From assembly GCF_006345805.1 (NCBI RefSeq), contig NC_043002.1, positions 99,138,001-99,202,000 of the forward strand: a DNA stretch of 64,000 nucleotides, written 5' to 3'. Position 1 is the stretch's first letter. Each line of letters starts with the position of its first letter. Below the pieces are notes generated by a model. That model was not told the origin of the DNA, searched no databases, and saw only the letters and a list, made by a program, of their open reading frames with translations. Origin of the DNA: Octopus sinensis. Its lineage: Eukaryota. This document shows, piece by piece, positions 15,865-64,000 of this stretch. The position numbers and the translations under genes are program-made.

Positions 15865-16246
15865 TGGAAGCACTCCGTCGATTACGACGATGAGGGTTCC
15901 GGTTGATCCGAATCGACGGAACAGCCTGCTCGTGAAATTAACGTGTAAGTGGCTGAGCACTCCACAGACACGTGTACCCTCAACGTAGTTCTCGGAGATA
16001 TTCAGCGTGACACAGAGAGTGACAAGGCCGGCCCTTTGAAATACAGGTACAACAGAAACAGGAAGTAAGAGTGAGAGAAAGTTGTGGTGAAAGAGTACAG
16101 CAGGGATCACCACCATCCCTGCTGGAGCCTCGTGGAGCTTTAGGTATTTTCGCTCAATAAACACTCACAACGCCCGGTCTGGGAATCGAAACCGCGATCC
16201 TATGACCGCGAGTCCGCTGCCCTAACCACTGGGCCATTGCGCCTCC
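15865..16246 (-). mobile_element. tRNA-derived SINE family B, full length
   Basis: 11-bp TSD attgggcaaat at 15854-15864 and 16247-16257; Pol III A/B boxes in the head. Confidence 0.92.
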
Positions 16247-21093: not shown

Positions 21094-21266
21094 ATATATA
21101 TAGAGTGGTTGTATACTGTCAACATAACGTGACATTCCCGTAAGGGAATTACACCACCGCAGTTTAGCCCTAGGAAGCATCGACGCTTCTTGTCGACTTT
21201 GACACATTTCCTGTGTCCTTATACTTGCGAAGGGGAGGCAAGCACCCCCTCGAGCTAGGATTCACA

Positions 21267-21313
21267 CCTGAGGACATGCATGTTTCTGGGTCTTAACCCG
21301 TCATCAGCCCAGG
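21267..21313 (-). ncRNA. Minimal type I hammerhead ribozyme
   Basis: cctggg-CTGATGA-c gggt taag accc a-GAAA-catgcatg-TC-ctcagg: 6-bp helix I, palindromic helix III ACATGCATGT, GUC cleavage triplet. Confidence 0.8.
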
Positions 21314-21330
21314 ATAGTGAGATCTGCTGA

Positions 21331-23014
21331 TTGAAATCTTTATTATAGGCACAATGGCCCGAATGAAGAGGGGACATAACAATACAATACACAGGACATG
21401 GGGTACATATAACAAAAATACAGAAAGGATGATATGAAATGAAATATTAATAATGAATTAAATGAAATGGCTTACGAGCCCCCCAAAACTCGCAGTTTCA
21501 TTTACAATTACAATTGTACTATCTGGGGCGTTCGTCAGTAATGTAAGCGAGTAATTCATCCTGTTCTATAACGCTGGGCAAACTGTCATATCGAACGTAG
21601 TGCGCTATGCACACAGCTGTATTTGAAAACAAATTTATTAATTTATTTACCGTCTCTTTATCCACAATTGCAGCCTTTATTTGGTTATGTATATCTTCGG
21701 GTTCAATTTCACTCTCGTTAGATTTTTTCATTATCGCTAATTTTTTCTCAATTTTTTTATCCTTTTTGTACAACATTACAGCTTTGAGATTTTTTTCCTT
21801 TTGGTCTTCCTCCTTCCTTGCATGTTTTCTGACATTCTTCCACTTCTGGTGACCATTTATTCGTTTCCTCCCACGTTGAACCTTCACTCACTTTCGTTGC
21901 TGTATCTCTCCCTTCGTGCGTTCGATCCTCTGTCTCGTCGGCAGACTTCTGTTTAGGTTTTTTTCTTTTTGGGGTCTTTGGGTGGTGATTCCACCCGTGT
22001 TTGCTTTCTATCCTCTTTTTCTTCTGTTCTTTCCTTTTCTTTCTCCTTCACCAACTCGTCACCAATTTCCACAGTATCTGTTGTCACGATTTCCTCTTCC
22101 GCGTGCAATTCCACAGTCTCCTTTTCTAACTCATCTGTCAAAGTCTCCATTCCTTCCTCCAGTGTTATCATCTTCTCTTGTATTTGTCTTTGGGGACACA
22201 CATCCTTCATGTGCCCTCTGCTCCTACATTTATAACACGCTGGAGGGCTCCCCTCCACCACGACTCTCAGTCGTATCTCATCGGGGAACACCAACTCCTC
22301 CGGGATGTTATACAAATCTGGCATGGTTATGTGGACCGAAACTTGCACCGCATAACCCCACCAGTTTATTTCTTTCGACTTTTCCACCTTAAGAATGTCC
22401 ACGCTCTCTTTAGAGTTGTAGATTATTGCAGCTACTATTGTTTCGGTATCAAGTTCCAGTGAGATTTTGCTTATTCGTATCCTCACTGCTCTTTTTCCAC
22501 AATAACTAGGAAGTAAAACCCATTTTCCGATTTTAACACTGTCGTTGCGTTTCTCTTCGCTTCGTCTTCATTTTCAAAACGAATGTCTACCGTAGCGTAT
22601 TTTCTACCTGTATTGTAGAAGGTAGTTCTTCTTTTAATTTCCTGTAGACATTTCTCAATCTCTTCCACCTCTGCTACTTCTATTCTCTTTGAGACCACAT
22701 TCCAAGTTCTGTATGTTATGACTTTTTTCTCTGCTTCTTTCACTTCGTCTTCAGGTGGTGTAACCCTCAGACAGTCACCTTCCTTCTTGAAGCTGTCGTA
22801 GTATTTCCTCAAATTTTCCTTCTCGACAATTATTTCTTCCAACTGTAATTCGTTCGCAGCCAGGCCTTTGCCTGCTGCTCCCGCATAAGTTTGGGCTTGC
22901 ATACCCAACGAAAAATCCAACAATTCAACACGACGCAACAGTTTCCAACAACAAAAATCAACAAAATCCAACTCACAACCGCAATACAAAATAACCGACA
23001 CGAACACTTCCAAG
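21331..23014 (-). mobile_element. ORF1-only (half-LINE, HAL1-like) non-autonomous retroelement #1
   Basis: TSD tag(t/c)gagatctgctga at 21315-21330 and 23015-23030; AATAAA on minus at 21339-21344; only an ORF1-like reading frame, with no room for EN/RT. Confidence 0.8.
21519..22902 (-). pseudogene. Frameshifted Tx1/L1-type ORF1 (RRM-like region, CCHC zinc knuckle, charged linker, C-terminal domain)
   Basis: ORFs 22483-23013, 21953-22486 and 21519-21887 join; MQAQTYAGAA N-terminus, GRKYATVDIRF, VLLPSYCGKR across the frameshift, CYKCRSRGHMKDVC knuckle. Confidence 0.8.
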
Positions 23015-23148
23015 TAGCGAGATCTGCTGAGTGAGATGCCTGTCTAGCCTTCGCAAATATATATATTTACAGTGAAATCTATTCACTGGTCACCGTAATT
23101 GGAAATATTAAATTTCTAAATGTCTCAAAGAGACATGAGCGGTGGTGG

Positions 23149-23538
23149 ATGGATGGAAGCACTCCGTCGGTTACGACGACGAGGGTTCCGGTTGATCCGA
23201 ATCAACGGAACAGCCTGCTCGTGAAATTAACGTGTAAGTGGCTGAACACTCCACAAACACGTGTACCCTTAACGTAGTTCTCGGGGATATTCAGCGTGAC
23301 ACAGGGAGTGACAAGGCCGGCCCTTTGAAATACAGGTACAACAGAAACAGGAAGTAAGAGTGAGAGAAAATTGTGGTGAAAGAGTACAGCAGGGATCACC
23401 ACCATCCCCTGCCGGAGTCTCGTGGAGCTTTAGGCGTTTTCGTTCAATAAACACTCACAACGCCCGGTCTGGGAATTGAAACCGCGATCCTATGACCGCG
23501 AGTCCGCTGCCCTAACCACTGGGTCATTGCGCCTCCAC
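23149..23538 (-). mobile_element. tRNA-derived SINE family B, full length
   Basis: TSD gag(c/t)ggtggtgg at 23137-23148 and 23541-23552. Confidence 0.92.
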
Positions 23539-23900
23539 AAGAGTGGTGGTGGGGCGATAGAGTGGTTGTATACTGTCAACATGACGTGAATTAATTTCCA
23601 CTGTACCTTTATGCGGCAATCTTTAATTTCGGTATCATTTCACATGCAACATCTTAGTTATGGTTCACATAAAACCTTTTAAAAACTTCCAGTTTGGAGG
23701 AATTAACATCAACAGGATATCTTATATCACACACCTCGTCCTTATACTTCATGGAAGATCACTCGAACTTTTCACACCATGAAATCCTCGAACCAAGTAA
23801 ATTCTTGTATTTTTATTTTCCTTTCTTCTTCGAGTTTTTGCATGGATTCTTTTGCGTAGAGACTTAATTACATTTGGGATGCTAAACAGAATATATATAT

Positions 23901-24022
23901 ATTGGCCTGCACGCGTAGCCAGCGGGGTGGCGTCATTGGAAGGCTAAAACAATGCGAACCCATTGTGACCAGCGATGTGTAGCAACATCTGATGGTCTGG
24001 TCGGTAACGTGATCACGTGATA
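23901..24022 (+). repeat. Short interspersed element of about 120 bp ending in cacgtgatcacgtga (second copy at 56589-56712, inverted)
   Basis: Two copies in the window, both adjacent to (TA)n. Confidence 0.75.
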
Positions 24023-24059
24023 TCAATATATATAAATACATACATACACAGACCCCCCC

Positions 24060-24106
<47 letters not shown>

Positions 24107-24123
24107 GCATATGTGTAGTAATG

Positions 24124-24176
<53 letters not shown>

Positions 24177-24368
24177 CCAAGAATGGAATTTTTTAATATT
24201 ATAATGCATTACTAAGTGCGTTTCCACGAATCGAAACATTTTTGTGACACTAATCATCATTCATGGTATGATTATAATATAATTTGTTCATGTGTTAAAT
24301 TTATTGAGACAATATTTAAAATATTTAAAAGATTCACAGATTTCATCCTTGGATCATCATCATCGTCC

Positions 24369-24405
<37 letters not shown>

Positions 24406-24446
24406 TATTATTATTATTATCATTATTATTATTACTGTTGTTGTTG

Positions 24447-24484
<38 letters not shown>

Positions 24485-24636
24485 ATCGTTACCATATTTA
24501 TCGTACATGATGCCAGCACTGCACAGTACGATGCCATAAAACTTCTGTTGCACGTTGGAATCAAGAAGCCGTAGCAGACATAACATAGGAACTTTTATGT
24601 ACGTACTCAAAGATGTTTCCCATTAACGAACTTAAA

Positions 24637-24708
<72 letters not shown>

Positions 24709-24709
24709 A

Positions 24710-24743
<34 letters not shown>

Positions 24744-24776
24744 CATATACATATATATATATATATATATATAATA

Positions 24777-24822
<46 letters not shown>

Positions 24823-24845
24823 GTATATATATATATGTATATATG

Positions 24846-24907
<62 letters not shown>

Positions 24908-24911
24908 TATA

Positions 24912-24981
<70 letters not shown>

Positions 24982-24990
24982 TATATATGT
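24124..24990. repeat. Compound microsatellites (TAA)n, (CAT)n, (TAT)n and a long (TA)n
   Basis: Direct tandem repeats. Confidence 0.95.
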
Positions 24991-25911
24991 ATAATCCTAT
25001 TAGTCAATTCTCATACATTTAATATTTTTCTTGCGAACACCTCAAACATGCAAATGCAGACAATTAAAGGTCTTGATACCGAGCAGTAAGAGGATTATGT
25101 GCACATTTGGAGATAATTGTTTCATTGTACACAGCGCCTCCTCGCGGATATCAGGCTCTATCAACTAGATCTAACTCATTGTTCCTCTATCCACTCTGAA
25201 AATCTCCTGTTTGCCAAATCCAGAGAATTTTGTTTCAACCATGCTTCAGATATATTCTGTGATAGTATTTGATTCATCATGAACTTTGACAAGCGAAAAT
25301 AACCAGTGCTTCACTCCATTATATGGAAAACATTCTGAAACCCTTTACCATTGGAGAGCAAGTCTGCTTCAAATCAATATTATCATTTTCTTCAAAGAAA
25401 TGCTTAGGCAGAGTCGATAGTATATGAAGGAAATGACTTAAGATTTGTTGCCTTACAAATGATTATATCCGTTTTATTAATTTTAAAGTTGTGTCTAAGA
25501 TCTCGTCGGTTTCCTCCCGCAGTTTGTCAGTCATTTGTCATATAGTTAATATATAGGTTGCGTGTACAATAGACGCTACTTCCGATTCCATTATAATAGT
25601 TAAGATACGCTTTGTGTAAGACAAGATATTTTTTTTATTTAAGGCATTAAATATGTAGACTGTACAGAATGATATCACAGAAATCTACTTAAGTATGAAA
25701 GCTATTGCCAAAAGATTTATCTCGTGGTACTGATTATTTTACAATACGGAGTTCACTTGAAATGTCTAAGTATTCAGCTAGAAAAATATCACCGATTTTA
25801 TTTATGAAGTAGTAGTAGCGACTTAGAAAAACGCAACAGTATTTATATGTCAAAAATGCTTATATGCATGATTGTATACGAAAGTGAGTTCATATTAGAT
25901 GCAATAATAAG

Positions 25912-26125
25912 ATGGCGAGTTGGCAGAATCGTTACTACATCAGGAAAATACTTAGCAGCATTTCGTCCGTCCTTATATTCTGGGTTCAAATGCCGCCAGG
26001 GTCGACTTTACTTTTCATGCGTTCGAAGTCAATAATATAAGTACCAGTTGAGCACTGGGGTCGATTTATTGACTAAGAGTCTCCCTGGAAGTTGCTGGCC
26101 TTGAGCCAAAGTTTAAAATCAATAT
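25912..26125 (+). mobile_element. SINE family C
   Basis: ggcgagttggcagaatcgtta..ttctgggttcaaatgccgcc..aagtaccagttgagcactggggtcgat. Confidence 0.8.
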
Positions 26126-28049
26126 CAGATGCAATATTGGAAAGAAAGTAATCTAAGACAATTTACTTCTTTGTGTGACTTGGGTACATGCGTTAGCTTT
26201 CAAGAAGTTCCATGTCTGCCTGTCACTCACACCATCTTAGCATGGTATTGGACCGAGGTTTCTGCAATCAGGAGGTAAAGACATTGAAGTGAGCTAGTTG
26301 TTGGATTGTGTTTTTGAGATTTGTAGAAGTCTTCAATCGTCTAAGTATACCGATGCTTGTCACTTTATCTGCATAATACGCCCTCTGTAAGTGTTCTTCT
26401 AAGAAACCACATTTCCGGAGTGTTGATAAAATCTTTACTTGTTTATTGGCCATCCAGATACACAACTATACGTAGAGAAAAACTACGTATTTCTGGGTGA
26501 TGAAAAGTCAACTCGAGATTTCAGAAGTTTTTGAGAGAATATGGAGTTACACCTTAGTGATTACTAATCCATTTCTCTCTCAGGATTGTTCCGGCCTAGA
26601 GTCGTAGTACCTATTGAATTATTCCCGGGTCAGAAAATAAAATAAAATCCTACACCATACGTCCATAATTGTGTGGCTATACAGTTTTTGGACAAAGGCT
26701 GGCTCTTGATAATTTGATATTGAAGTCCACATGTTTGTAGACATGTACTGATGCCAATTGAACCAAACACAAGTTGCTCCTGTGCCTCGTGAGCAAGCTC
26801 AAGAAAGCAGGAGTTTTGTATTGCAATCTGTAAATAAGCTGACATGACGGTAATGAGAAACCACGATTATATCTTTCTCCGAAAAGTTACCAGTCTGCAA
26901 ACTTTATGTAATGCCCCCGACGTAAATTGAAACACGAAGAACATGTTTATTTCCGTGTTGAATGAAATTAGAATATTTAATATTTTGGGTTTTTATAACT
27001 TGAAGAGAAAAGTACATTTAATATCACGAAGTCAGTGTTATTAAATAACACAATAAAACTACTTCAAGAAACATGAATTCAGGTCATTAATAAAATGATT
27101 CAAAAAATTTTCTTTAATTTTTGAAAAACTATTGCTTTATTCATAGGACGACAATTAACGCCATATTTGAAATTTCTATTTTGATAAAGGAATGCAGCCG
27201 GAAGTGTTTTTGGAAAACTTTTGTAAATAACAAAATGTAGTCAAAGTTAGAATCACTACTTCCAACAGTTTAATATTCTTGATGGATTTAATTTCCGTTT
27301 CTTTTTTTCAGACACTACATGAAGTTGTAAATTATTCGTCAATAGTGTCCAGTTTGGTATTGTGTCTTAGCAATGAAGCTCACGTACTTCTTTAGCACAT
27401 GGAGTGCTTTCAAAATAAATTAGTTCATTTGTCACATTTTGATATTTCTCATTCTTTGTTTTTCTGTCAACTGCATTTGGTAAATATGTAAAAGGTTCAA
27501 ACTTATGCGTTTCCGTTATACCATATTGTCTACACCAAATATGATTTTCCTTCTACTCAAAGAGAAACTTTATTGGTATCCAGGGAGAAAGTATTAGTTT
27601 TATAGCTTGAACTAATGTTATGTAAATGGAAATTACAAATTAAAAGTTTTAAGTGTATATACAAACTTTGAATACGCAAAACCTTAAGTGTCTAAATAGG
27701 CTTATGTTTAAGTGTTTCTATTTATCAGTCATAATGATAAGCAGAAAATATCTTAATGTGCTGGGTGTGACATAGATATTTACTCATTATTCACACATAA
27801 TTGAAACAATCGCAAAACCAGTTGCAGATTTTATGCGACGTATAATGCTTCCTCATATTCTTGGTTTTATTGTTGATCCTTAATTAAATATGGCTGCTAT
27901 GTGAAACAATTTCAGAATTGATAATGACTGATATAAAGAATCGAGAGGTGATAAAACAGCAGAGAAAAGATTAAGGGCTACGGTGAACGCAAATGGTAAC
28001 GTAACCATGTTGAATTGTGAATATATGTAAACTATCATTCTTCTATTAT

Positions 28050-28230
28050 TTTATTTGTTTCAGTCATTTCACTATGGCCATGCTGGAGCACCGTTTGTAA
28101 TCGAAAAAATTGACCCCAGGACTTATTGTTTGTAAACATAGTACTTGTTCTATCGGTCTCTTTCGGAACTGCTAAGTTACATAGACGTAAACACACCAGC
28201 ATCGGTTTTCAAGCTTCTTACCACACAGCC
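28050..28230 (-). mobile_element. SINE family A, internally deleted
   Basis: ttgtttcagtcatt..catgctggagcaccg..ctatcggtctctt. Confidence 0.7.
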
Positions 28231-28347
28231 TGTAAAATTTCATTAACCAAAACCTAAAAATTTCATTCATGAACACAAAACCAGGAATAAATATATAAGC
28301 CGTAACCGGTACACTTAATTACACAAACCTCTGATTTATGGCCGTGA

Positions 28348-28447
28348 NNNNNNNNNNNNNNNNNNNNNNNNNNNNNNNNNNNNNNNNNNNNNNNNNNNNN
28401 NNNNNNNNNNNNNNNNNNNNNNNNNNNNNNNNNNNNNNNNNNNNNNN
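28348..28447. other. Assembly gap (100 N)
   Basis: Run of N. Confidence 1.
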
Positions 28448-29101
28448 AGAGAAACAAAAAACAGAAAACAGGACAGGTAACATAAAGACTGACCCTTCGT
28501 CAGTTGTCGGCTGTGTAGCTACTTCTCGTTTCGAGCAATGACCGACAATATGAGTCTTCGAAGACAGTACCAAAATATAATTTGGGATTTATGGAGGGTC
28601 AAAGTTGGGTACACAAATAGAACGCTAGAGACATGCAAGGAAACCAAACGAAAACAAGCACGGAGGATCGTTAGAGCAGAACGAGGTTAAAATAGCGAAC
28701 GCTGGAAAAATATTTTCTTTGACAAGAGAAAAGATACAGAGAGAGGGGATACGTCCAGTCATAAGGACAGTCCTGAAAGAAAAGATGATCTCGTGAACAA
28801 AAGAAAGATGGACGAAGGTTATATATATATATATATTAAATATAAAGATAAAATCTATATGAGAATTTATCAAGTAGTTAGCGTGAAAAAAGAGTTAAGG
28901 GATAAATTTATACAAAATATATAATTACTCTCTTTAAATACATTTATTATATTAAGGGCATTTGTACACGAAATGCCTCAGGCTATAAGGGACTGTTAAA
29001 GTCAAAACTACATTAATAAATATATGGTGTACCAACAGCGAGGGAATGCAACTGGGAACACGCACACGCACGCACACACACGCACACACACACACACACA
29101 C

Positions 29102-29140
<39 letters not shown>

Positions 29141-29782
29141 ACCGGAATACACACACAATGTGTATTCTCGACATCTAGGCTCCAAGTTTCATGTCATAAC
29201 ATAATTGCATTCACGTTCTGTTTGTCTTTTCTTTATTTATATCGTAATATCAACTCATATCTTGCGAGACATTTTACAGATAGAAACTACATAGATGACC
29301 GTCATATGCATTGTACATGTAATTGAAATTGCTCTGCCGCATACCTTATCACATTGATTTGACATGAGATTTACGCATTAAGGATATATATATCTGAGAA
29401 ATGGTCAATCTTTAGCGCATTAAAACTGAAGTGGGTAACTCACTTAAGGGAACAACTAAATCCTCGTTACGAAACCGATCAAGAACCATAACAATATGTG
29501 TGCGCATGCTTGTGTGTGCATGTGTGTGTGATTGTGTGTGAATATCTACATGCATACATATATCCATCGTAAATATGAGTGCTTGTGTGTGTGTGTCAGT
29601 GAGTGCATGTGTGAGTGTATGTGAGTGTATGTGTGTGTGTGTGTATGTGAGTGTATGCGTGTGTTTGTGCGTGCAGTGTCGTTTTTTCTTCTGATTACCA
29701 CTCCTTGTTTAATCCACATAGGTATGTCTTTTCTCTACCAAGAAACAAAAATCACATGTATGCATACACGCACGTCTGTCTG

Positions 29783-29849
<67 letters not shown>

Positions 29850-30438
29850 CTCTCTCTCTCTCTCTCTCTTCTATATATATATATATATATATATCTGTAT
29901 ATATGGTTGTATATTAATTAAATACCCCCCACACACGCACATAATACCTTTAGCTCATTAAAGAGACATTCGGTTCAGTTAACAAGACATCTGCAATTCC
30001 ATTAACGGAAATATTTATAGTTGAATTTTCATTCGCTCTTATTACCCATAATTCTTTTTGATCACCAGGAGTATAATAATTTTTATCTTTCATACTTTTT
30101 ATTTTCTTTCATCAAATTACGCACTGAAGTAAATATTGTTCGAATGTTTGACGTAATCGTTGTAAACATACGTAGACCTAAATGTCTATTATATATATAA
30201 ATAATATTTTAGTTGTATCAATCAGTGGATTGAGGTGATGGTGGGACATTGATTAGAAGGTTTTTAGACGAAAGAATAGATCTCAGTAATTATCTTTTTG
30301 AAAGCCTGGTTCTTATTCTATCGGTCTCTTTTCCCGAACCAGTAGGTGTGGAGTGCAAAAAGCAAAAAGACAGATTTATAGTTAAAATCTATCTACTTAT
30401 CTATCCATCCATCCATCCATCCATCCATTCATCCATCC

Positions 30439-30530
<92 letters not shown>

Positions 30531-30880
30531 CTTTTTCCTTGCCTCTCTTTCTTTATACACAAACACACTCAGACACACATATGTATCTATATATATATAT
30601 CTGACGGGCTTCTTCCAGGTTCCGTTGATCAAATCCTCTCACAAGACGTTGGTCAACCCGGGTATACAGGACAAGACATTTGAACAAGAAGCTACGCAAG
30701 CAGACTGAACCATTCAATGTAATTGAACAGTAGCAATTTTCTTACCAAAGGCCTCTGCTGCACTTATATATATATATATACATATTTAGAGTTTTTAACT
30801 CTTATCTCTAACAACTTCTTCGGCACGCTCAGTCACATTAAGTAACAATTAAATTTTTCCTTCATGATATTATATTGCGC

Positions 30881-30924
<44 letters not shown>

Positions 30925-30930
<6 letters not shown>

Positions 30931-31325
30931 ATAATAAAGGGCAAAATCAATTGATTATTAATTAATTTCACCAAGTGGTGTTCAGTATGTAAAAGGACCA
31001 TTCAAGGTATATTCAAAATATAGGGCTCAGTAAAATAATTTACTTTACCACATACTGAATTTTTAGAAATAGCAGCCAAAAAGTTTTTTTAGCCATTTCT
31101 ACTACTTTAAGAAAAGTCTCCCAGATAGTGTTTACTCAAAAATAATTCACGTAGATGTGGAGGGAAAGCAGCAAGATATCACATGTACAAAGATTATTTG
31201 AGACGCTCAGGTTTCTAGATTAGTCGAATTAAAACTCGACATTTCTTTCGTCAGCTCAACATTTCTTAATTTGGATTTCTAAAAATGTCAGTATGTGGTA
31301 AAGTAAATTATTTTACTGAACCCTA
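30925..31325 (-). mobile_element. Diverged relative of the 37.4-38.7 kb HHR repeat, with an internal inversion and a decayed HHR (about 31196-31259)
   Basis: Homologous blocks (ttcagtatg..gtaa..tattttact; ttgaatggtcc..catactgaacac); ttgag-CTGACGA-aaga..tcta-GAAA-c..ctcaa; inverted repeat 31028-31070 vs 31275-31318. Confidence 0.7.
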
Positions 31326-31945
31326 ATTATATAACGTAATATATATATATATATATATATAATATATGTGTGTGTATGTGGGATGGGGTGGGGTGATTGT
31401 GGGGGTGGGCGTGAATACATATATATATATTTATATATATATATATATATGTATAAATGTATGTATGTGTAGGTGTGTGTGTATGTAGTGTGCGTATGTA
31501 AGTATGCATGGGTATATCTGTGCATTTATGCGTGTGAAGGTGATTATTTTACGGAACCGTAAAGAATCTGCCATACAGTAATCACTTCGTCTACGCACTC
31601 TGAGTTTCAATCGCTCACAGATCGATTTTGACTTTTATTCTTTCATTCTTTTATTCTTATGGAATCGATAAACAAGTACCATATTGTACTAGAATATGTT
31701 CTTCTCTCTCTCTCTCTCTCTCTCTCCTCTCTCTCCCTCATTAGCTTTCACTCTCCTTCTCCCACTCTCTCTCTCTCTCACTCATTCTTTCCCTCACACT
31801 TTATCTCTTTGTCTTTCTTTCGGAGAAATAATCCGCTGTAGTCACATCCAGAATGTGATGTTCCATCAAATTTGAAAATGGCCATTACACATTATTTATA
31901 GCAAAAGAGTATCTTACTACTCTATCAAGCGGTTGAGGTACCTAA

Positions 31946-32005
<60 letters not shown>

Positions 32006-32287
32006 CATACAAAAAAACGAATAAAAATACATACATGTATACTACGTTAGTCTTTCTCAAACAATGTGATAAATTGTGCGTATGTTGCTTTTAGAGTTAA
32101 ATGTGGTTTATAGCAGTGCAAAAGAGTATTATCAAATAAATTATGAGACATCAGAAACAGAAACAAAAATACCAGTATATGATAACAGACAGTATGGATT
32201 TTGCATTTGGTTTTAATGCTATGTTTACTTATGAAGTGAATGATATAGACAAGGCTGTTAGGTAGACAGATAGATTGTAAGGTGGAC

Positions 32288-33753
<1,466 letters not shown>

Positions 33754-33783
33754 TAGATAGATAGATTGAAAGATAGATAGATA

Positions 33784-33847
<64 letters not shown>

Positions 33848-34217
33848 CGAGTGTATGAGCGAGGAGAAAAGGTTTTGCAGAGAATATTTAGTTAAAACAA
33901 TCCAACAAATATCTCTCAACTGCGTCTTGTTGCTCGATAAATTGCTACAGTTCAATGGTTTCGTGAGCAATTTTTTTTATTTATATATTTATCATCAGGT
34001 TGTTTTATTTGTGTGTTTGTTACCACACCGTTATCAATAGCCAGAGACTGTCAGTATATATATATTTTCAAACATCGAACTCTTTCCGGCCATTCAGGCT
34101 GGGATTCATTACCTTTTATTCAGTAAGATTTTCAATGCTCTATGTGTTGCACATCTTGGTTTCTTTTGGGACACGATATTGAGTGATATGGATTTATAGA
34201 AACGCGCCGAAATCCTA

Positions 34218-34776
34218 TTATGAAGTTTTCTTATGTAGAGCTTTGTCTGTTATCAATGTCAGTTTCCAAACATACCGACCAAGCAGTTTCTTAGAGGGTT
34301 CGTTTCTTTTATGTCTGTAGGGGTATGAGAGTGTTGTTGCTTTGTTGCTGTTGCTTGGCATGTAGATTATAAGAATAGGACTTCGCCTTGTGAGAGCTAA
34401 GCCGAGAGATTAGAAAGAAAGTATTTGAATGAATGTATCGTACAGAACATCAAAACATTATGATATTTGTATTCATATATTAAAGCTGTGCTTTTCAAGC
34501 TGATAATCATCAGGCTCCACTCACCAAAATTTTGCTCAACCTCTTGTTTAATTATAAGACAAAACAACGTCTGTATGCGTATAATTCTGTTTTTCTCACT
34601 ATGAAATTTTACACCATTAACAGTTAAAAACCTTCTCAATTTCATTAAACACTGCTGTTTGTCAGTGATCTTTTTCAATACTTGCAGCCCACCACATGTC
34701 AATAGATCCAGGCCACTACTGGAAGAAACGGGTGTCAATGCTATTGTATACTCACTGTTCTGTCCTGTAGATTCTT
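34218..34776 (-). CDS. Putative two terminal exons (34525-34776 and 34218-34396) of an unknown, possibly extracellular, protein
   Basis: Acceptor tttctccAG, 252-nt open phase-1/1 exon, donor GTGAGT at 34519-34524, 128-nt intron, acceptor AG at 34397-34398, open frame to TAA at 34218, AATAAA at 34115-34120; no recognisable homology. Confidence 0.3.
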
Positions 34777-36452
34777 CTGGAGAAAGCTAGTATTTGAATA
34801 GTAGAGGTGTAATTGATATTTTTCTGCTAATCAACCACACAGTTAACCACTAGTATAAGCCTTTGATTTCAATCTAAAAAATATCAAATATCTTAAAGCT
34901 TGTATTTGAGAAATCTATGATACACAATGACTACTTAATTCGCCACCTGGTAGATATACATGGAAGGGAATTTATTTGACATCTGAGAAAATATTAGTAG
35001 TATGGTAATAATGACTTATTTGACGTCTGATAATGTGTTATTAGAATGATAATTGGGACATGTCAGTCCATTTCAGTCCATTTCATCGTAAGTCCAAGTT
35101 AAATTAAATAACATTGATTAAATTTGTCTACCGTAACTTGCTTTGTTGATTATAGATTCAACACTCCGCAATCAATATTTTTTAGATTTTTATTTGTAAA
35201 ATTAAGTGTTAACGTGTGAAGCGCTCGTCTTGTGAGTGTCTTAATACTAGTATAACACTGTTTACTTACATAATCACATTATGTCATATTGATAAACTTT
35301 GTTGTTATTGATATTATTTCTGCTACTGTTAGCTGTTAAAAAGATTACCTATAATCAAATGCGTTCCATATGCCGCCATTACGTTTTGCGTTTATTACAT
35401 TATTAAGAGTGACTTTATAGAAATGAATAGTAATCGACGTGAGGGATATTTGGTTGCTATTTCTTAAAGGTAAGCAGCCATGTAGAAGCTCTAATGTTAC
35501 CACATAGTCAACGAAAAGTTATAATGTGATTATTGATGTTCACATCAATATATGTAAGATAAGAATGGACACGACTTCATTCACTGATCGAATGAGTGAA
35601 ATGTTGTAATCTTGGCTTTCTATAAACTCATCAATTGCTTAACAGCATTCCATCTATCAAATGTATCTAGAAATAGTGATTTGTTACTGAAGTCCACAAA
35701 TACGTTGTGCAGGGGGGAAGTCGAGAATATTCTATTGCTCTTTCCATTTTGTGTCAGGTTTTACAATACACTCCTTCTCGCTTTCTTTCAATACTTTCCT
35801 ATCAATACCTATAGTTCACACGTAATTTCACAACCCCCACTCACTGGTTTCTCTCCTTTTCCCGGCAAATAACCGCCACCTCCCTAAGGGTTTTTTTGGG
35901 GATGCTTGTGAGTGTCTGAAATTTCTGCAACCTGGAGTTCTTTCGTTTTTAGGATCAGAAGATTAGTCCAAAGTCCAACCTTGAAATCCTCTAGGTGTGT
36001 TGGTCTTCTGTCGGGCTTGGTTTTCTTTGGACGTTCAGGCGATTTCCTCTCACTTACGAGCTCCATCTGACCAGGATTGGAACACAGACTTTCCATCCAG
36101 TAGAAACATTTATGATACCCCATACCAACCAGCTTAGTTGGTGACTTTTTAAAAAGGGTTGAGAGAATTAGTGGTGTGATATTGCCTCGGTCATTTGCGC
36201 CCATTTTGCGTTAATTGCAACCAAGATTCTATCTATCCTACGCTGTGTCCCAACGGAACATCCATATTGATGTGGTGTGGGAGTATGACTACAGAGTGCA
36301 CCCTTCCTTAAGAAAGCACTGAATAGCTTAGCATTGCGACTGTTTTATAGCAATGAATGATTGATAAATGTTTAATCGTTGATCTCAGGCATGAAAGAGT
36401 GAGGAGATGAGAGTGGTTTAAACATATATATATATGTGTGTGTGCATCTAAA

Positions 36453-37204
36453 CCTTTCTTTTACTTGTTTCAGTCATTTGACTGCGGTCATGATGGAGCA
36501 CTGCCTTTAGTCGAACAAATCGACCCCAGGATTTATTCTCTGGAAGCCTAGTGCTTATTCACGCAGTCTATTTTGCAGAACCGCTAAGATACGGGGACGT
36601 AAACACACCAAGATCAGTTCTAAAGCGATGGTGGGGGAACAAACACAGACACACAGAAACACACATACACACTCATATATATATCGGAGAACCCCTTCGG
36701 TCACGACACAGACCATGGGATTGCACCTAGAAAGTTACCCTCCTAGACACAAGTCCGGGTGAGGTTGTTTATGGAAGACCAGCAGTCGCCCATGCATACC
36801 AGCCTCCCCTCTCCACGCCACCAGTGTTATCCAAGGGAAAGACAAAGGTCGATACAGCTTGGCACCAGTGACGTCGCAACTCATTTCTACAGCTGAGTGA
36901 ACTGGAGCAACGAAAAAAATAAAGTGCCTTGCTCAAGAGCACAACACGCAGTCCGGTCCGGGATTCGAGCTCACAACCTCACGATCGTAAGCTCGACGCT
37001 CTAACCACTGAGCCATGCGCCTTCACCCTATATATATATATATACGACGGGCTTCTTTCAATTTCTGTCTACCAAATCCACTCACAAGGTTTTGGTTGGT
37101 TTGAGGCTATAGTAGAAGACACTTGCTCAAGAAGCCACGCAGTGGGACTGAATCCGAAGCCATGTGGTTGGGAAGCAAGCTTCTTACTACACAGTTACTC
37201 CTCT
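36453..37204 (-). mobile_element. SINE family A interrupted by SINE family D
   Basis: Tail at 36453-36670 and head at 37044-37204 flank the insert within the internal (TA)n. Confidence 0.85.
36686..37027 (-). mobile_element. tRNA-derived SINE family D
   Basis: Head ggcgcatggctcagtggttagagcgtcgagcttacgatcgtgaggttgtgagctcgaatcccgg with A and B boxes. Confidence 0.85.
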
Positions 37205-37339
37205 ATATGTATATATGTAGCTATGTATGTGGTATTATGCTGCGCATATATAATATATATATATTATATATATATATATATATAAATAAATATATATAAT
37301 ATATAGATAGATTAAAATAACACACCCACACACCCACAC

Positions 37340-37373
<34 letters not shown>

Positions 37374-37868
37374 AAGGAAAACTTTAGGAACATTTCATGA
37401 TAGAGCTACAATATTTTATAATAAACTTTTGTGAGTTGAATTAAGCAAAAACTATATATGAGAGAGATTTTCTTTAAGTATTAGAAATAGCTTTAAAAAG
37501 TTTTTTAGCTGCTATTTCTAATGAGTTCAGTATGCGGCAAAGTAATTTATTTTACTAAGCCCTTTTATAATGTAATAATTTGAATTCGCCTTGAATGGTC
37601 CCTTTGCATACTGAACACTTTGTGAAATTGATTAATAATTAATTAATTTTGCCCTCAATTGTTGAAATTATAATTACCCTCTGATTAATGCTTCGGATTT
37701 TACCGAAATAAGCATAGTGTTTGATGATTTTAACCCCCGCTGGTGGAAAGGGGAGAACAGAGATTCTTCGCTTGCTTATTTGAATTTGTTGGCACTGTTA
37801 GTTACGAGCAGATCTTCGAAAGGTATGTTCTTATTTTCAGTGTTTCCAAATCCAAACCAAGGAATTTC

Positions 37869-37920
37869 TGAGCTGATGATAGAAGTGTTGTTTTGACTAA
37901 TCTTGAAACGTACGTTCTCA
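37869..37920 (+). ncRNA. Minimal type I hammerhead ribozyme
   Basis: tgag-CTGATGA-t aga..tct t-GAAA-cgtacg-TT-ctca; palindromic helix III ACGTACGT. Confidence 0.75.
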
Positions 37921-38408
37921 AATAACCTTAGCATTTGATTTTTCGATGTCCTTACCCCCAAACTTGTGAGTTGAATTAAGCAAACACTATATATGAGAGA
38001 GATTTTCTTTAAGTATGAAATAGCTTTAAAAAGTTTTTTAGCTGCTATTTCTAATGATTCAGTATGCGGCAAAGTAATTTATTTTACTAAGCCCTTTTTA
38101 TATAATGTAATAATTTGAATTCGCCTTGAATGGTCCCTTTGCATACTGAACACTTGGTGAAATTGATTAATAATTAATTAATTTTGCCCTCAATTGTTGA
38201 AATTATAATTAATCTCCCTCTGATTAATGCTTCGGATTTTACCGAAATAAGCATAGTGTTTGATGATTTTAACCCACGCTGGTGGAAAGGGGAGAACAGA
38301 GATTCTTCGCTTGCTTATTTGAATTTGTTGGCACTGTTAGTTACGAGCAGATCTTCGAAAGGGTATGTTCTTATTTTCAGTGTTTCCCAATCCAAACCAA
38401 GGAATTTC

Positions 38409-38460
38409 TGAGCTGATGATAGAAGTGTTGTTTTGACTAATCTTGAAACGTACGTTCTCA
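38409..38460 (+). ncRNA. Minimal type I hammerhead ribozyme (tandem copy)
   Basis: Identical to 37869-37920. Confidence 0.75.
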
Positions 38461-38743
38461 AATAACCTTAGCATTTGATTTTTCGATGTCCTTACCCCCA
38501 ACTTTTTTGTGAGTCGAATTAAGCAAACACTATATATGAGAGAGATTTTCTTTAAGTATTAGAAATAGCTTTAAAAAAGTTTTTTAGCTGCTATTTCTAA
38601 TGAGTTCAGTATGCGGCAAAGTAATTTATTTTACTAGCCCTTTTATATAATGTAATAATTTGAATTCGCCTTGAATGGTCCCTTTGCATACTGACACTTG
38701 GTGAAATTGATTAATAATTAACTAATTTTGCCCTCAATTGTTG

Positions 38744-38821
<78 letters not shown>

Positions 38822-39670
38822 TGTGTGTGCGTGTGTGTGCATGTGTGTGCGAGTGTGTGTACATGTGTGTGCGTGTGTGTGTGTATAATCACACACATAG
38901 AAAGAAAGAGAGAATAATATAAATATATATATATATGAGACACTCATACTTACATATACATATCGAACACGCAGCAATTCTAACAAACATAAAAATATGA
39001 AAATTGTAAAAATTATTCCTCTCAGTAAATTAATATTTTCATACTCAGACATGTCCATGACACAGAAATATGTCAATGTTTGTGATATTGATTTAAAGGT
39101 AGATAAAAGATTCGAGTAAACTTTACATAAATCAGTGCAGGTAAAGTTTGTCATTGCATTAAAGCATAAAATCACATAATTTAAGTTGAGTGACATTCAC
39201 AGAAATCATTTTGTAAGAAGGATTTCTAAAATCCAGTTTGACAGGTCTGCTTAACTCATTCTAAGTGGGTTTAGCAAAATGAAAATAGTTCATAATCTTT
39301 GTTTTACTTCTTGAAAACTTTTAATCATCGTCTCTTTCCGGATTCAAAAATACCTATCTCTGAATATCTACCCTTTCTCTACTATTCCATCATCCATTTC
39401 CGCTGTTTTGTTTCCCTCATTCTCCAGCCATTCTCTGCTTTTTTATAACCCGTAAGAACTTGATGCTTGACGTTTCCAATAAATGCGATAGATTCATTGA
39501 AAGAAAAAAAAAATTAAGCATACCGCTATATTAACAGATGAAGTATACGGAGTCCATGCAGTGTTGCTATTATCTCAAAGAACAAACTAAAGAGGAGTCG
39601 AGCTATTATATACTATTGACTTAGTGCCCAAGCATTTAACACAAAACAGAATAAATAATAAAAAAAAAAT

Positions 39671-40080
39671 AGGCACTGGAGTGGCTGTGTGGTAAGTAAC
39701 TTGCTTACCAACCACATGGTTCCGGGTTCAATCCCACTGCGTGGCATCTTGGGCAACTGTCATCTGCTATAGCCCCGGGCCGACCAATGCCTTGTGAGTG
39801 GATTTGGTCGATGAAAACTGAAAGAAGCCTGTCGTATATATGTATATATATATATATATGTATGTGTGTGTATATGTTTGTGTGTCTGTTTGTCCCCTTA
39901 GCATTGCTTGACAACCGATGCTGGTGTGTTTACGTCCCTGTCACTTAGCGGTTAGGCAAAAGAGACCGATAGAATAAGTACTGGGATTACAAAAAGAATA
40001 AGTCTCGGGGTCGAGTTGCTCGACTAAAGGCGGTGCTCCAGCATGGCCGCAGTCAAATGACTGAAACAAGTAAAAGAGTA
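39671..40080 (+). mobile_element. tRNA-derived SINE family A, full length
   Basis: Head with gggttcaatccc B box; conserved tail. Confidence 0.92.
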
Positions 40081-40235
40081 AAAAAGGAAGGATTCATTGA
40101 ACAAGGTATTTGAATACACACACACATAATTGAAAAACAAGAGGACAGTGGAAATTTATTCACATCCAAAACTTTTTTATTAAAAAGATTTCTATATAGG
40201 CGCAGGAGTGACTGTGTGGTAAGTAGCTTGCTTAC

Positions 40236-42298
40236 CCAGAATGCAACACTAGTTGGTCTGGACTGTTACAGTGAGCAGATGTGAGTTTCGGCTCCGCGAA
40301 TAGAAAAAAAGAACAAAAAGAAAAATTGTCAATTATGGCTCGCTATAACGAGCAAAATACTGGTTTCTCATCACCGTAACGGTGAATTGAGAAATTTTTT
40401 GAAAATTTTTCTTGTGAATTCTAGTGGGCGTATCTCGCCAGAAAAATAAGAATAAGCCATTTGGATTACCTTTTTGGAGTACCTTTTTGGAGTATTATAC
40501 AAAGGATTCCCTGTCTGTGCTATTTGTGAGGTTTTTCCTTTACTTTTCTCTTCTATTTTTTCTTTCTTTCTAAATTTTGGTTCATTCTTTTCATTATTTT
40601 AATTTCAGTTTCCTCCCCTCCTCTTTTATTTTGTTTTATTTTTATTCGGTTTAATTTTTTGGCAGAATGTCTTTTGAACTACTTTTGAACTGTTTTTTGA
40701 CATGGCAGAGAAGGAACTTAAAAAGAAAAACTCTGTCTTAGAGTGGGAAATTAACCCGCCTAAGCAATGGTTAAAAGATATGGAGGAGAAGATGATGGTA
40801 CTTAGAACGTATTCTAAAGTTCTTAATTCCATCACCGTCTTCCCAAAACAAGTCATAAAAAATGAACTTTTGAAAAAAGAACATTTGTCCTCTGTAAAAT
40901 ATATATCCCGTGGTGTAAAACATGCAACCGTATGGTTGCTGTTTGACAACGGGGAAAAGGCTCGCCAGTTTGCGAGTCAGCCTTTAGAAAGCAAGGAAAT
41001 TCTGTTTCTCCCGTCATATTGCGGAAGAAAATTAATACGAGCCTGGGTATGTGGGCTCCCCCCGGGCACCGAAGCGGATTGGATTGAAGATACTGTCCGA
41101 CGGGGACTGGGGGATGGCGGTCCCAGGCTCTTAAATGTAAGAGTATTGCCGGCGTTCGATTGGGAAGTGTCAAAAGCGATTTTGACCCTGTGGACCCCAT
41201 CGGCCGCAACAGAACTGGTTTTTCCAGATTTCTTGAAAATGGCTGGCTGCAGGCATCCGGTGATACTTGAGGGATGTCCCCCAAAGTGTCACTTGTGCCT
41301 GCAGCCAGGCCACATTAAAAGGAACTGCCCCCAGGACCATGGTATGGTCCTGGAACAGTCACTACATGCCATCACCCCTACCCGGTCAAAGGGAGAGGTG
41401 GATGTGGTCGAGGAGGCTTCAGCCTCCTCAACTCAAAAAAATTAAAAGGAGAAGGCGGGCAACAATAGTTGCCCGCCGAAGGAACCTAAGGCTTCGGAGG
41501 CGGGGGAGAGTCTCGGACAAAGCGGAAGAGCTCCACTCTCCCGAAGCCAGGAAGAAAAGAAAAAAATGATGGAAGAAGAACGGGTCATCTCAGCGGGGAG
41601 ATGATGTGCCGACTGCATGCCGAAGTTGTGCCACCCACGGTGGAAGAAATCACCCCCACCCTTAAAGATGATCAATTAATTACATTTTTCTACAAGGGCG
41701 GGGAGGTGGAAAAAATAGTAGAAGAACATAAAGAAACAGTAGATATGCCCTTCACACGGGATCCCGAATGGCCTCCGCAGATAGCTGTGGAGGTCATAAG
41801 TTTTCCCTTGTGGGAAAGGCTTAAAGGATTTGGGGAGGAGTGTCGCATATGGCCGGGTGGCCCTAACACGACTTACATGTCCTACATGAGTGAGGCATGG
41901 GAAATGGCGGGATACAGGAACTGAAGCGGCATTGAAGATAATGATGAATATATCGATGGATATATCGAAGAGTAGGAGGTGAAAGACCCTCGTTACTGGG
42001 TTTGAAACCTCATCTTATTGGATTATTTTGTAGTGGTTTATAACCTCAATTTTGTGCTTTAAGAAAGAAAAAAAAAGAAAACATGTTAAGTAAGAGGTTT
42101 TAGTGCCTCCTCCTTGTAAGAGGTTTGAAACCTCATATTGATTAAAAAAAAAAAGAAAATATGTTTTCGAGAAAAATCCAATCGGCGGGTGTTGTTTTTC
42201 GTCTCTCATTTATTCATTATATTTCATTTTCATTCATTAATGTATTTGTACAGCCCGCAAAGCTCTTTGTATTGTCTATATGACAAATCTGTGAAATA
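40236..42298 (+). mobile_element. ORF1-only (half-LINE, HAL1-like) non-autonomous retroelement #2
   Basis: TSD aagtag(c/t)ttgcttac at 40221-40235 and 42299-42313; AATAAA at 42295-42300 abuts the TSD; no ORF2 remnants. Confidence 0.82.
40702..41924 (+). pseudogene. Frameshifted Tx1/L1-type ORF1 with CCHC zinc knuckle
   Basis: ORF 40702-41445 has GVKHATVWLLF, LFLPSYCGRK and CHLCLQPGHIKRNC; it continues after frameshifts into 41601-41924. Confidence 0.82.
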
Positions 42299-43089
42299 AA
42301 GTAGTTTGCTTACTTACCACATGGTTCCGGGTCCAGTCCTACTGCATGGCACCTTAAGCAAATGTCCTCTATTATAGCCTTGGCCCGACCAAACCCTTGT
42401 GAGTGGATTTGGTAGACGGAAACTGAAAGAAGCCGTTGTGTGTGTGCGCGCGTGTGTGTATGTGTGTATATGTTTGTGTGTCTGTGTTTGTCCACCCAAC
42501 ATCACTTGACAACCGATGCTGGTGTGTTTACGTCCCCGTAACTTAGCAGTTCGGCAAAAGAGACCGATAGAATAAGTACTAGTCTTACAAAGAAGAAGGC
42601 TTGGGATCGAATTGCTCGACTAAAGGCGGTGATCCAGCATGGCCTCGGTCAACTGACTGAAAGAAGTATAAGAGTAAAAGAGTATAGATATATAACAATG
42701 AACAACATATTTTTCTGCGGCAGCACATTTTTCTGCACATTGCTCTGTAAGCAATTATGCATTCTGGTCACTGCAGTTTCATAAAGGGTCTGTCGCGATG
42801 TTTTCAAAATGAAAAACAAGCTTCCTGCGTTGGTATTCAGTAGAGGGTGATAGCGTTTCTTTTTAAACCGAATTTAATTTTGGTCTTACAATCACCTCTA
42901 CTGGTATTACAGTTGAATCTTGGTCTTAGAATGTTTATTTATATTAAAATTAATTGTAGCAGTGTTGTTCACATTTTACTGTATGGAGTATATTATTTAT
43001 TCAGAGGTATTTCACTTAATTTGGGTGTATATCTTCAATTAATATTATTGTTATTATTATAATAATTATATTTATTAGTATTATATGCT

Positions 43090-62639: not shown

Positions 62640-64000
62640 ACATATACCTCGTTTTGTGGTACACTGTTATTACGACGAACCTCGTCTAATATGTGGCACT
62701 TGGTGAAGAATGGAGTTTGATAATAGCTACTCTCATTTACACCTCTTGCCGTGAGGTAGGTTCATATGGGACTCTTGACAGGAAGATGTCCAGCTTTGAT
62801 TTAAAAACCGCTACATCTACTTTGTAAAGTTCCTCAGACTCTTTGGGAGAATATTAAAACGCTGTGGGCCCTTGAAACATAGGCTGTTGCAGAAGCTGGT
62901 CCTGAAGCGTGATGGCATTGCTGGGATCTTTGGCACTATGCAGTGTCGTCCCGTTCTAGCATTGGTGTAGCTTACAATGCCAAAATTTGGCACAATTCCT
63001 TCCATGATCTTCCAGACATATATTACTGCATACCTCTCCCGTCTTCTCTCCAGGGAGTAGAGTCTTAGCTGTTTCAACCTTTCCCAGTAGCTGAGCTGTT
63101 GCAAAGAGATGATCTTCTTTGTAAATCTTCTCTGGATTGCTTCAAGGTCCGCTGTTAATTTTACACTGGTGGATGACCATAGCTGTGAGCAGTAATCCAA
63201 GCGACTGAGGACGAATGTCCGCCAGAAGACCATCATGGCTTCCTTATCTCTGGTTCTGAATGTTCTTAGGATCCACCCAGCCAGTCGTCTGCACTTTGTC
63301 GCCATCTTGGCAATGTGCACTGGGAAAGATGTATCATCATTCATGTCGATACCCAGGTCTCTCACAGACTTAGGCTCTGGGTTTGAAATTCCCTGTGGAC
63401 CGGTGTATCCTGTAAGTTTAATATTGAGTTTTGGATGCTGGTAGCGCAGGGCCTGGAATTTTTCAGCATTAAACTGCATATTATTATCCTCAGCCCATCT
63501 GTAGATTGAGTGCAACTCCTGCTGCAGGTGTGCAACATCGCTGGGGTTCTGTATTTTCTGCGAGACTTTCGTATCGTCTGCATAGCTGGCCAGAGTGGCT
63601 ATCCGGGCATTTGAGGGCATATCTGAGAGGGCCACTATAAAAAGCAGTGGTCCCAAGACAGTGCCCTGTGGAACACCGCTCACTATTTGTGTGTTCATAG
63701 AGGTGGCTCCATTAACCACTACTGCCTGACTCCTATCTTTCAGGAAGTCATGCAACCATACTCCAAGTTTTCCAGCTATGCCAAGGTCACGTAATTTGTG
63801 GCTTATCATACCATGATCCACCTTGTCAAAAGCTTTTGCAAAATCAAGGTAGATTACGTCCACATTTGATTTGTTGAGTAACTGCCTCAACACCCAGTCA
63901 TAATGCTGTAAGAGCTGGGTCAGGCAGCTCCTACCTGGTCGAAAACCATGCTGGGTATCACTCAGCAAGTTATTTTCCTCAAGGAATGCGATTTGTTTCT
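62640..64000 (-). mobile_element. CR1/L2-group LINE, reverse transcriptase region (runs off the window end)
   Basis: ORF 62817-63968: QHGFRPGRSC, YLDFAKAFDKVDH, SGVPQGTVLGPLLF, YADD, RDLGI, LYSLERRRER; frameshifted tail FKSKLDIFLSRVP. Confidence 0.95.

Follow-up and report, generated by a model that had tools for sequence, protein, structure and literature searches.

LINEs (long interspersed elements) that keep only the first of their open reading frames (ORFs) and ride on other elements have been described in the L1, Jockey, and CR1 clades (PMC5786205, PMC5753468, PMC3627910, PMC13534243). In the mammalian HAL1 elements, the long-kept coding capacity of ORF1 has been read as a need for the ORF1 protein (ORF1p) in cis, with the ORF2 protein (ORF2p) acting in trans (PMC5753468, PMC3627910, PMC5786205). 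SINEU, a non-autonomous rider, has been assigned to the LINE Tx1-Mar by their common target, and flank transcription has been proposed (PMC4494074). For octopus, a 2026 repeat annotation lists 13 recently active L1-Tx1 families, and its main text contains neither "ORF1" nor "non-autonomous" (PMC13282606). Here, we analyze a stretch of 64,000 nucleotides from Octopus sinensis (the window; RefSeq assembly GCF_006345805.1, contig NC_043002.1, positions 99,138,001 to 99,202,000), in which an earlier note, made from the letters alone, had described two complete ORF1-only LINEs. We call these half elements A and B. We hold with high confidence that they represent two old ORF1-only families sitting at the exact targets of two autonomous Tx1-like LINE families, by whose endonuclease and reverse transcriptase (RT) they are likely copied.

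Two ORF1-only elements and their genomic families

Element A (subfamily A1) is a decayed copy of 1684 bp on the minus strand (21331..23014). Element B (subfamily B1), on the plus strand (40236..42298), is a decayed copy of 2063 bp with a 5' untranslated region of 466 nt. The target site duplications (TSDs) of element A (minus strand; 5' copy, 23015..23030; 3' copy, 21315..21330) are 16 bp long with 1 mismatch, and its AATAAA lies 8 nt ahead of the TSD. Those of element B (plus strand; 5' copy, 40221..40235; 3' copy, 42299..42313) are 15 bp long, also with 1 mismatch; here, the AATAAA overlaps the TSD, so that the final AAG is target sequence. Both pairs are genuine TSDs, as the duplicated sequence is present once in empty sites (A targets, and copies of a short interspersed element [SINE] for B). 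The earlier note was right about the two complete elements with their TSDs, coordinates, and AATAAA positions, and about the motifs common to the two proteins, which reappeared in the ORF1 alignment. It was also right that the elements lack any endonuclease or RT trace: tblastn with an intact ORF2 query found no match inside either window element or inside 60 fetched A1 and B1 copies. Its description of a single ORF1-like frame per element did not hold, as both window ORFs are broken. The ORF1 remnant of element A (21519..22902, minus strand; ATG at 22902) is spread over three frames with at least two frameshifts, and that of element B (40702..41975, plus strand; ATG at 40702) has at least one frameshift plus premature stops.

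In DNA searches, we scored the best 40 of 431 candidates for A and the best 40 of 1978 for B. Full-length copies, aligned end to end, made up 27/40 and 24/40, respectively (window copy counted), and the end-to-end copies were 81-93% (A) and 88-94% (B) identical to the window copy. Protein searches returned at least 150 matches each for A and B and brought up additional subfamilies whose frames are open over 400-460 aa; some of these form head-to-tail arrays of 1.7-kb units. A third ORF1-only clade, C, was met stacked with A at locus L132; it likewise gave at least 150 matches and includes nine-unit arrays. Public octopus protein sets annotate several copies as host genes. At three loci (L132:1-9900, L135:2058-3168, and L189), we observed more ORF1-like units with <50% identity to A, B, or C, stacked at the same sites; additional half-element lineages beyond the three clades are likely.

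The earlier note would have been contradicted by most genomic copies continuing into an ORF2. In a census of ORF1 copies, an AATAAA end without a preceding ORF2 was found in 78/86 A-clade, 47/55 B-clade, and 31/34 C-clade copies, and none of the A- or B-clade copies ran into an ORF2 start. The remainder comprised 9 loci that were too short, 8 without an end by our rule, and 2 followed by mid-RT fragments. As controls, copies of two partner families (described below) had ORF2 in 7/7 and 12/13 cases. A and B are confirmed as multicopy ORF1-only families of fixed length.

Targets shared with autonomous LINEs

Loci were picked by element sequence alone, and their flanks are therefore unbiased. For B1, the same 15-mer of a SINE was present at the 3' junction in 30/30 loci by eye (26/30 by a fixed-offset rule), and other B subfamilies have this 15-mer at the junction as well. 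Such sites occur about 10 times per 128,000 strand-bases of the window. The window copy interrupts this SINE (plus strand), splitting it into a 5' part (40199..40235), whose head holds the 5' TSD copy and which has an A-box-like stretch, and a 3' part (42299..42440) with a B-box-like stretch. The A and B boxes of the target SINE were seen by eye only, and Rfam gave no tRNA match in it.

Family A uses a different target. Of 30 A1 loci counted by hand, 22 have the element within a repeat, immediately upstream of a CTGATGA...GAAAC...GTC motif. The others comprise 4 copies stacked behind a target of this kind, 3 off-target copies, and 1 truncated copy. In the window (minus strand), the 5' part of this multicopy repeat lies at 23031..23150, with a TATA-like run at 23065-23055 and CCAGTG at ~23089, and the 3' part at 21130..21314. 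The latter contains a minimal type I hammerhead motif (21267..21313) composed of helix I (CCTGGG/CTCAGG), CTGATGA, helix II, GAAA, a palindromic helix III, and GTC. A hammerhead descriptor gave 126 matches (64 distinct, overlapping loci) versus 0 in 5 shuffles. The sequence of helices I-III varies among target kinds with pairing kept, and several kinds have core variants (CCGATGA, TTGACGA). Rfam found no hammerhead in the A target, and its free folding was no better than that of shuffles. The A target carries a predicted minimal type I hammerhead with three helices.

At some loci, the A target repeat shows a 353-bp spacing and inverted copies; none of 30 loci had a linked autonomous Penelope ORF less than 1.5 kb away. 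This tandem and inverted arrangement fits a retrozyme or Penelope-type repeat, which the target may be, by comparison with non-LTR retrozymes and Penelope-like minimal hammerheads (PMC7229834, PMC8557442, 10.64898/2026.07.22.740005). A Penelope-like RT plus GIY-YIG fragment (weak Pfam matches) was seen at L103:7400-8600 (plus strand), with a 3' region unlike the A target repeat. Subfamily A2 (L091, L093, L095, L096, L106, and L107) inserts in another repeat, in which CCAAT and TATA boxes precede the point of insertion; this repeat has good coverage in runs presumed, not confirmed, to be RNA. The window also holds two copies of another tRNA-like SINE (15865-16245 and 23150-23400, minus strand), the second of which immediately precedes the target repeat of element A.

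Both targets are used by full-length LINEs of ~5.4 kb, TxS at the B target and TxH at the A target, each with endonuclease, RT, and zf-RVT domains (Pfam). The 3' end of TxS falls at the same SINE base as that of B in 30/30 loci by eye (27 by exact pattern). The 30 TxH loci, counted by hand, comprise 25 at the hammerhead site, 3 stacked with half elements, 1 in a U2 gene, and 1 off target. A third partner family, TxC, is known only as 3' ends in L259, L277, and L280. Half and full elements are stacked at one site in these three loci and in L131, L182, and L184; in L131, a B element, a full TxS LINE, and another B element occupy a single SINE site.

The partners and the half elements also have similar 3' tails. 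About 27 terminal bases of TxS are common to most B subfamilies, and ~40 terminal bases of TxC are common to clade C and subfamily A2, whose targets differ from that of A1 and are more varied. Four clade C copies (L264, L266, L272, and L273) were found at one further common target sequence. In element A, the 3' end (21331..21372, minus strand) is predicted to fold into a stem-loop that includes AATAAAGA, and a similar fold is predicted for the tails of A, C, TxH, TxC, and a LINE family that inserts in (TATC)n. The tails of TxS and two B subfamilies have a smaller hairpin in common.

The partners are L1-group elements with two ORFs, an APE endonuclease, an RT, and a C-terminal zinc motif (Pfam). 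Their best solved relative is human L1 ORF2p (E value of 4e-62; R2, 2e-25). Their target specificity (30/30 for TxS and 25/30 for TxH) lies above the >20% of flanks used as a criterion in PMC4494074. We call them Tx1-like from this architecture and target specificity, no named Tx1 sequence being among the 120 matches listed. The nearest non-octopod relatives of ORF1 and RT are unnamed metagenome-assembly proteins (RT, 50-56% identical), closer than the named animal matches listed.

ORF1 has been kept under selection

An intact natural A copy (L024) encodes an ORF1 of 460 aa. Its structural model (mean predicted local distance difference test score, 71; 14-row alignment) best matched tandem RRMs, namely, IMP3 RRM12 (E value of 7e-5, 12% identity, and a high root mean square deviation). 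After the RRMs come a single CCHC knuckle, a charged linker that is disordered, and a C-terminal domain that is folded; the same order of two RRM-like domains, knuckle, linker, and C-terminal alpha/beta domain is seen in the remnant of element A. The zf-CCHC match in Pfam was weak and below the cutoff, and a comparison of the C-terminal domain of A with the C terminus of a partner ORF1 gave at best a weak match (E value of 0.04).

We then compared the half-element ORF1 with that of three local autonomous LINE families, as the earlier note had proposed. The proteins are homologous (21-37% identity). Core identities were 26-34% between A and TxH, 31-37% between A and TxS, 22-27% between B and TxS, and 21-29% between A and B. 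A, B, and C form separate clades in the ORF1 tree, and ORF1 relatedness does not track the pairs of half elements and partners. A common origin of A and B is unsupported, given their low core identity, their separate clades, and the weak deep branches of the tree. Of the old, diversified, Tx1/L1-derived ORF1-only lineage that the earlier note had envisaged, the age, the diversity, and the Tx1/L1-group ORF1 stand, and the single lineage for A and B does not.

The ratio of nonsynonymous to synonymous substitutions (dN/dS), another check that had been suggested, was estimated by the Nei-Gojobori method on the ORF1 core for pairs of natural copies. The median was 0.11 for A (22/36 pairs; the other 14 were saturated) and 0.15 for B (18/21 pairs); the sole C pair gave 0.45. 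The medians for A and B indicate that ORF1 was under purifying selection while the subfamilies diverged as ORF1-only elements.

These data bear on the possibility that the half elements are recent derivatives of their own full LINEs, made repeatedly by internal deletion or premature ending. Internally deleted and chimeric copies do exist (L131, L136, and L179), and repeated loss of ORF2 is documented in Drosophila telomeric elements (PMC13534243). However, the ORF1 cores differ by 63-79% from every autonomous ORF1 seen, the A and B subfamilies reached synonymous saturation while still ORF1-only, and there is no DNA likeness to the partners past the tail. A derivation of this kind is largely refuted, and we consider it very improbable.

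Probable mobilization in trans by site-specific partners

The common target, the common tail, and the mixed stacks make it very likely that the half elements are moved in trans. Once transcribed, a half element would make its own ORF1p, likely coating its own RNA in cis, which would explain the selection on ORF1. The partner's ORF2p likely acts by recognizing the short AATAAAG-terminated 3' stem-loop, nicking the site that it prefers, and priming reverse transcription there. The TSD would recreate the target, allowing later copies of both families to stack head to tail. The earlier note had expected copies with common ends and differing TSDs; the ends are indeed common, and the TSDs, not being arbitrary, represent one fixed target per family.

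The partner and the tail, and not descent, likely determine specificity, because the ORF1 of half elements is not closest to that of their partners and because one A subfamily with a clade C tail uses another target. At L136:5380-6900 (minus strand), we observed a family A 5' end fused in frame to the 3' end of a TxH ORF2; chimeras of this type may be a route for tail exchange.

The earlier note had suggested the window's own Tx1-like LINE as a possible helper. This 5'-truncated copy (32690..33745, minus strand) belongs to the same superfamily and lies in (TATC)n, as do 5/5 other copies of its family with a visible 3' end, whereas TxS and TxH use the exact B and A targets. This LINE probably does not serve A or B as a helper. 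More broadly, a single general helper, such as this LINE, could move all half elements, with their own ORF1p or RNA setting the target. The (TATC)n family is both young and intact (ORF2, 1149 aa), its tail folds like those of A and C, the targets of clade C are varied, and TRE5-A offers a precedent for targeting guided by ORF1p (PMC5911963). Yet no A1 or B1 copy lies in (TATC)n, where the family's own copies do, and autonomous families with unrelated ORF1 use the same base as A and B. In addition, A subfamilies with 66-90% identical ORF1 differ in target when the tail differs. A general helper thus seems quite unlikely. A separate, distant RT fragment in the window (63444-63998, minus strand) is 26% identical to the Tx1-like ORF2.

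Several observations weigh against mobilization by TxS and TxH. The pairing of half elements with partners rests on common targets and short tails: A and TxH have only ~14 identical terminal bases, the window B1 copy has no BLAST-detectable DNA likeness to TxS, and the predicted fold of one B1 tail is poor. The census rule failed on 3/3 control copies of the (TATC)n family, owing to internal AATAAA. At L179 and L279, half-element copies are followed by ORF2 fragments, which begin in mid-RT and not at the ORF2 start. The weak deep branches of the ORF1 tree count here as well, and since the 40-150 best candidates were scored per search, an autonomous LINE bearing an ORF1 of the A or B type may have escaped notice.

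A-to-G hypermutated copies

Among the A-clade copies, 5 of the 80 tested had 52-124 A-to-G changes on the element's sense strand, compared to 0-4 T-to-C changes. No such hypermutation was detected in 51 B, 32 C, or 60 autonomous copies, and no copy showed the opposite strand bias. The five copies occur on both genome strands. Adenines preceded by G were spared (28/832, as opposed to 23% for those preceded by A or T), and adenines followed by G were favored (160/735). ADAR enzymes disfavor A after G and favor A before G. The strand specificity and ADAR-like context therefore point to editing of the RNA intermediate before reverse transcription. Inverted target repeats as the source of double-stranded RNA would be a guess.

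An RNA step also bears on whether the arrays and fixed flanks stem from DNA-level duplication of a few element-plus-flank units, carried, for example, by the SINE or the hammerhead repeat. Adjacent array units are 97-99.9% identical, some loci are neighboring duplicates (L021/L023), and unequal crossover may enlarge arrays. As a general account, however, duplication is hardly credible: copies lie on many chromosomes and in different target variants, with a TSD that fits the local variant; different subfamilies and full LINEs alternate within one stack; 5'-truncated copies carry their own TSDs; and the strand-specific A-to-G scars require an RNA step.

Possible insertion at transcription start sites

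At the A and TxH targets, the TSD begins 25-30 nt past the TATA-like run. In the full TxH copy in the U2 gene, the TSD begins at U2 position 1, and the usual target sequence is carried at the 5' end of the element. Off-target A copies (L094, L132, and L027) have a donor-target tag of the same kind at the 5' end. The RNA that was copied therefore likely started within the target at the donor site. Together with the distance to the TATA-like box, these tags argue that family A is likely transcribed from the promoter of its host repeat, and they suggest that the helper uses host promoters as well. In two runs presumed to be RNA, contigs covered the element together with its target repeat but not the unique flank, which is only a weak hint of expression.

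Pattern searches yielded another U2 +1 junction (A clade, L283) and one U1 +1 junction (TxH-like, L287), compared to 0 in reversed controls. The TSD of L283 is only degenerate; in L287, the junction falls exactly at +1 and the 3' flank is genomic, and no TSD was found. Template switching or 3' transduction is possible in both cases. The resemblance of U1 and U2 starts to the target sequence speaks against a promoter tether. ATCAGTG (≤1 mismatch) lies 53-61 nt ahead of the TSD in 14/20 flanks listed, including both U2 genes of L204. We considered an snRNA-type promoter, and U6 gives no support for it, as none of 20 U6 loci visibly carried ATCAGTG at the corresponding position; this, too, counts against a tether. 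On these sequence grounds, promoter capture by A and TxH is partly supported.

We tentatively put forward a joint reading, which we regard as somewhat less probable than its opposite. A and its partner would land at the transcription starts of small promoter-bearing units (hammerhead repeats, U2, and U1) and be transcribed from the captured promoter, with the 3' end perhaps cut by the host hammerhead 55-60 nt downstream; such cutting is conjecture. Half elements would be long-lived third parties for which the exchange of a 40-nt tail brings a new helper and a new target, and ADAR would have rewritten some of their germline copies before these inserted.

Other promoter-related observations concern family B and the U6 loci. 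The 5' ends of B subfamilies (seen at L119, L122, L124, L125, and L126) open with GCGCATG(T/C)GC and TTCCGG motifs, which resemble NRF1 and ETS sites; these motifs suggest an internal promoter in B. Six of the 20 U6 loci (L289, L290, L291, L292, L294, and L295; position 1501-1640) look like retrocopies, with a full U6 joined directly to common short repeats at a fixed point inside them and without a U6 promoter upstream, and are possibly U6-SINE chimeras. A tandem array of ~20 variant U6 genes with octamer and TATA upstream lies at C1:141926002-141953129 (L297-L307).

Comparison with known systems

Within a single genome, the octopus elements provide three natural pairs of an ORF1-only element and a site-specific helper, both represented by intact young copies. 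These pairs allow tests of the cis need for ORF1p, of how LINEs choose targets (endonuclease, tail, cotranscribed target, or ORF1p), and of helper change by riders. For RNA-templated gene insertion, a compact 1.7-kb rider of a site-specific LINE is of interest as well. The edited copies suggest heritable genomic marks of octopus RNA editing, left via retrotransposition. The literature searched (Repbase, Dfam, subscription papers, and the supplements of PMC13282606 fell outside its scope) held no description of Tx1-type ORF1-only elements, LINE targeting of hammerhead repeats, or edited genomic copies in cephalopods. The ORF1-only lifestyle is already known from HAL1, HeT-A, and Ag-Sponge, and it is the Tx1-type, site-targeted form that was not found there.

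Regarding targets, the closest systems are the target-specific Tx1 families (Tx1L, Keno, Kibi, Koshi, and Tx1-Mar), which are L1-group LINEs aimed at repeats, microsatellites, or U2; we found neither a SINE head nor the start of a hammerhead repeat among the targets described in PMC4494074. SINEU, the rider of Tx1-Mar, is non-coding, whereas the octopus half elements encode ORF1 (PMC4494074). The A target resembles retrozymes and Penelope-like hammerheads in being a short multicopy repeat, tandem and inverted, with a minimal type I hammerhead, but here the hammerhead repeat is the landing site and not the element. The fixed position relative to a promoter recalls TRE5-A and Ty3 at Pol III promoters (PMC5911963), although sequence recognition could account for the octopus sites. 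The possible use of a host transcript recalls R2 cotranscription (PMC4494074, PMC5786205).

HeT-A and other telomeric ORF1-only elements, as well as Ag-Sponge, also form head-to-tail arrays mixed with autonomous partners, and their ORF1-only lineages likewise gave rise to new ORF1-only families (PMC5786205, PMC13534243). They belong to the Jockey or CR1 clade, and HeT-A lies at chromosome ends, whereas the octopus arrays occupy internal targets with TSDs.

With HAL1 of mammals, the half elements have in common the lack of ORF2, non-autonomy, an L1-group origin, and a long-kept ORF1 coding capacity. They differ in being from a mollusc, in their Tx1-like zinc-knuckle ORF1, sequence-specific targets, stem-loop tail, and three deep clades, and in an ORF1 that is not close to that of any partner seen. 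Mammalian L1 has a poly(A) tail and no fixed target. A strict HAL1 would have 5' and 3' parts in common with an L1-clade parent, a poly(A), and no fixed target; the octopus elements have no DNA likeness to a partner beyond the last 14-40 nt, an ORF1 that is not sister, and fixed targets, and no poly(A) was seen at the junctions of A1 and B1 copies. They do show the ORF1 homology, the common ends without ORF2, and the kept ORF1 of the wider class of ORF1-present non-autonomous LINEs. The octopus half elements work like HAL1 and HeT-A but fall outside strict HAL1 membership.

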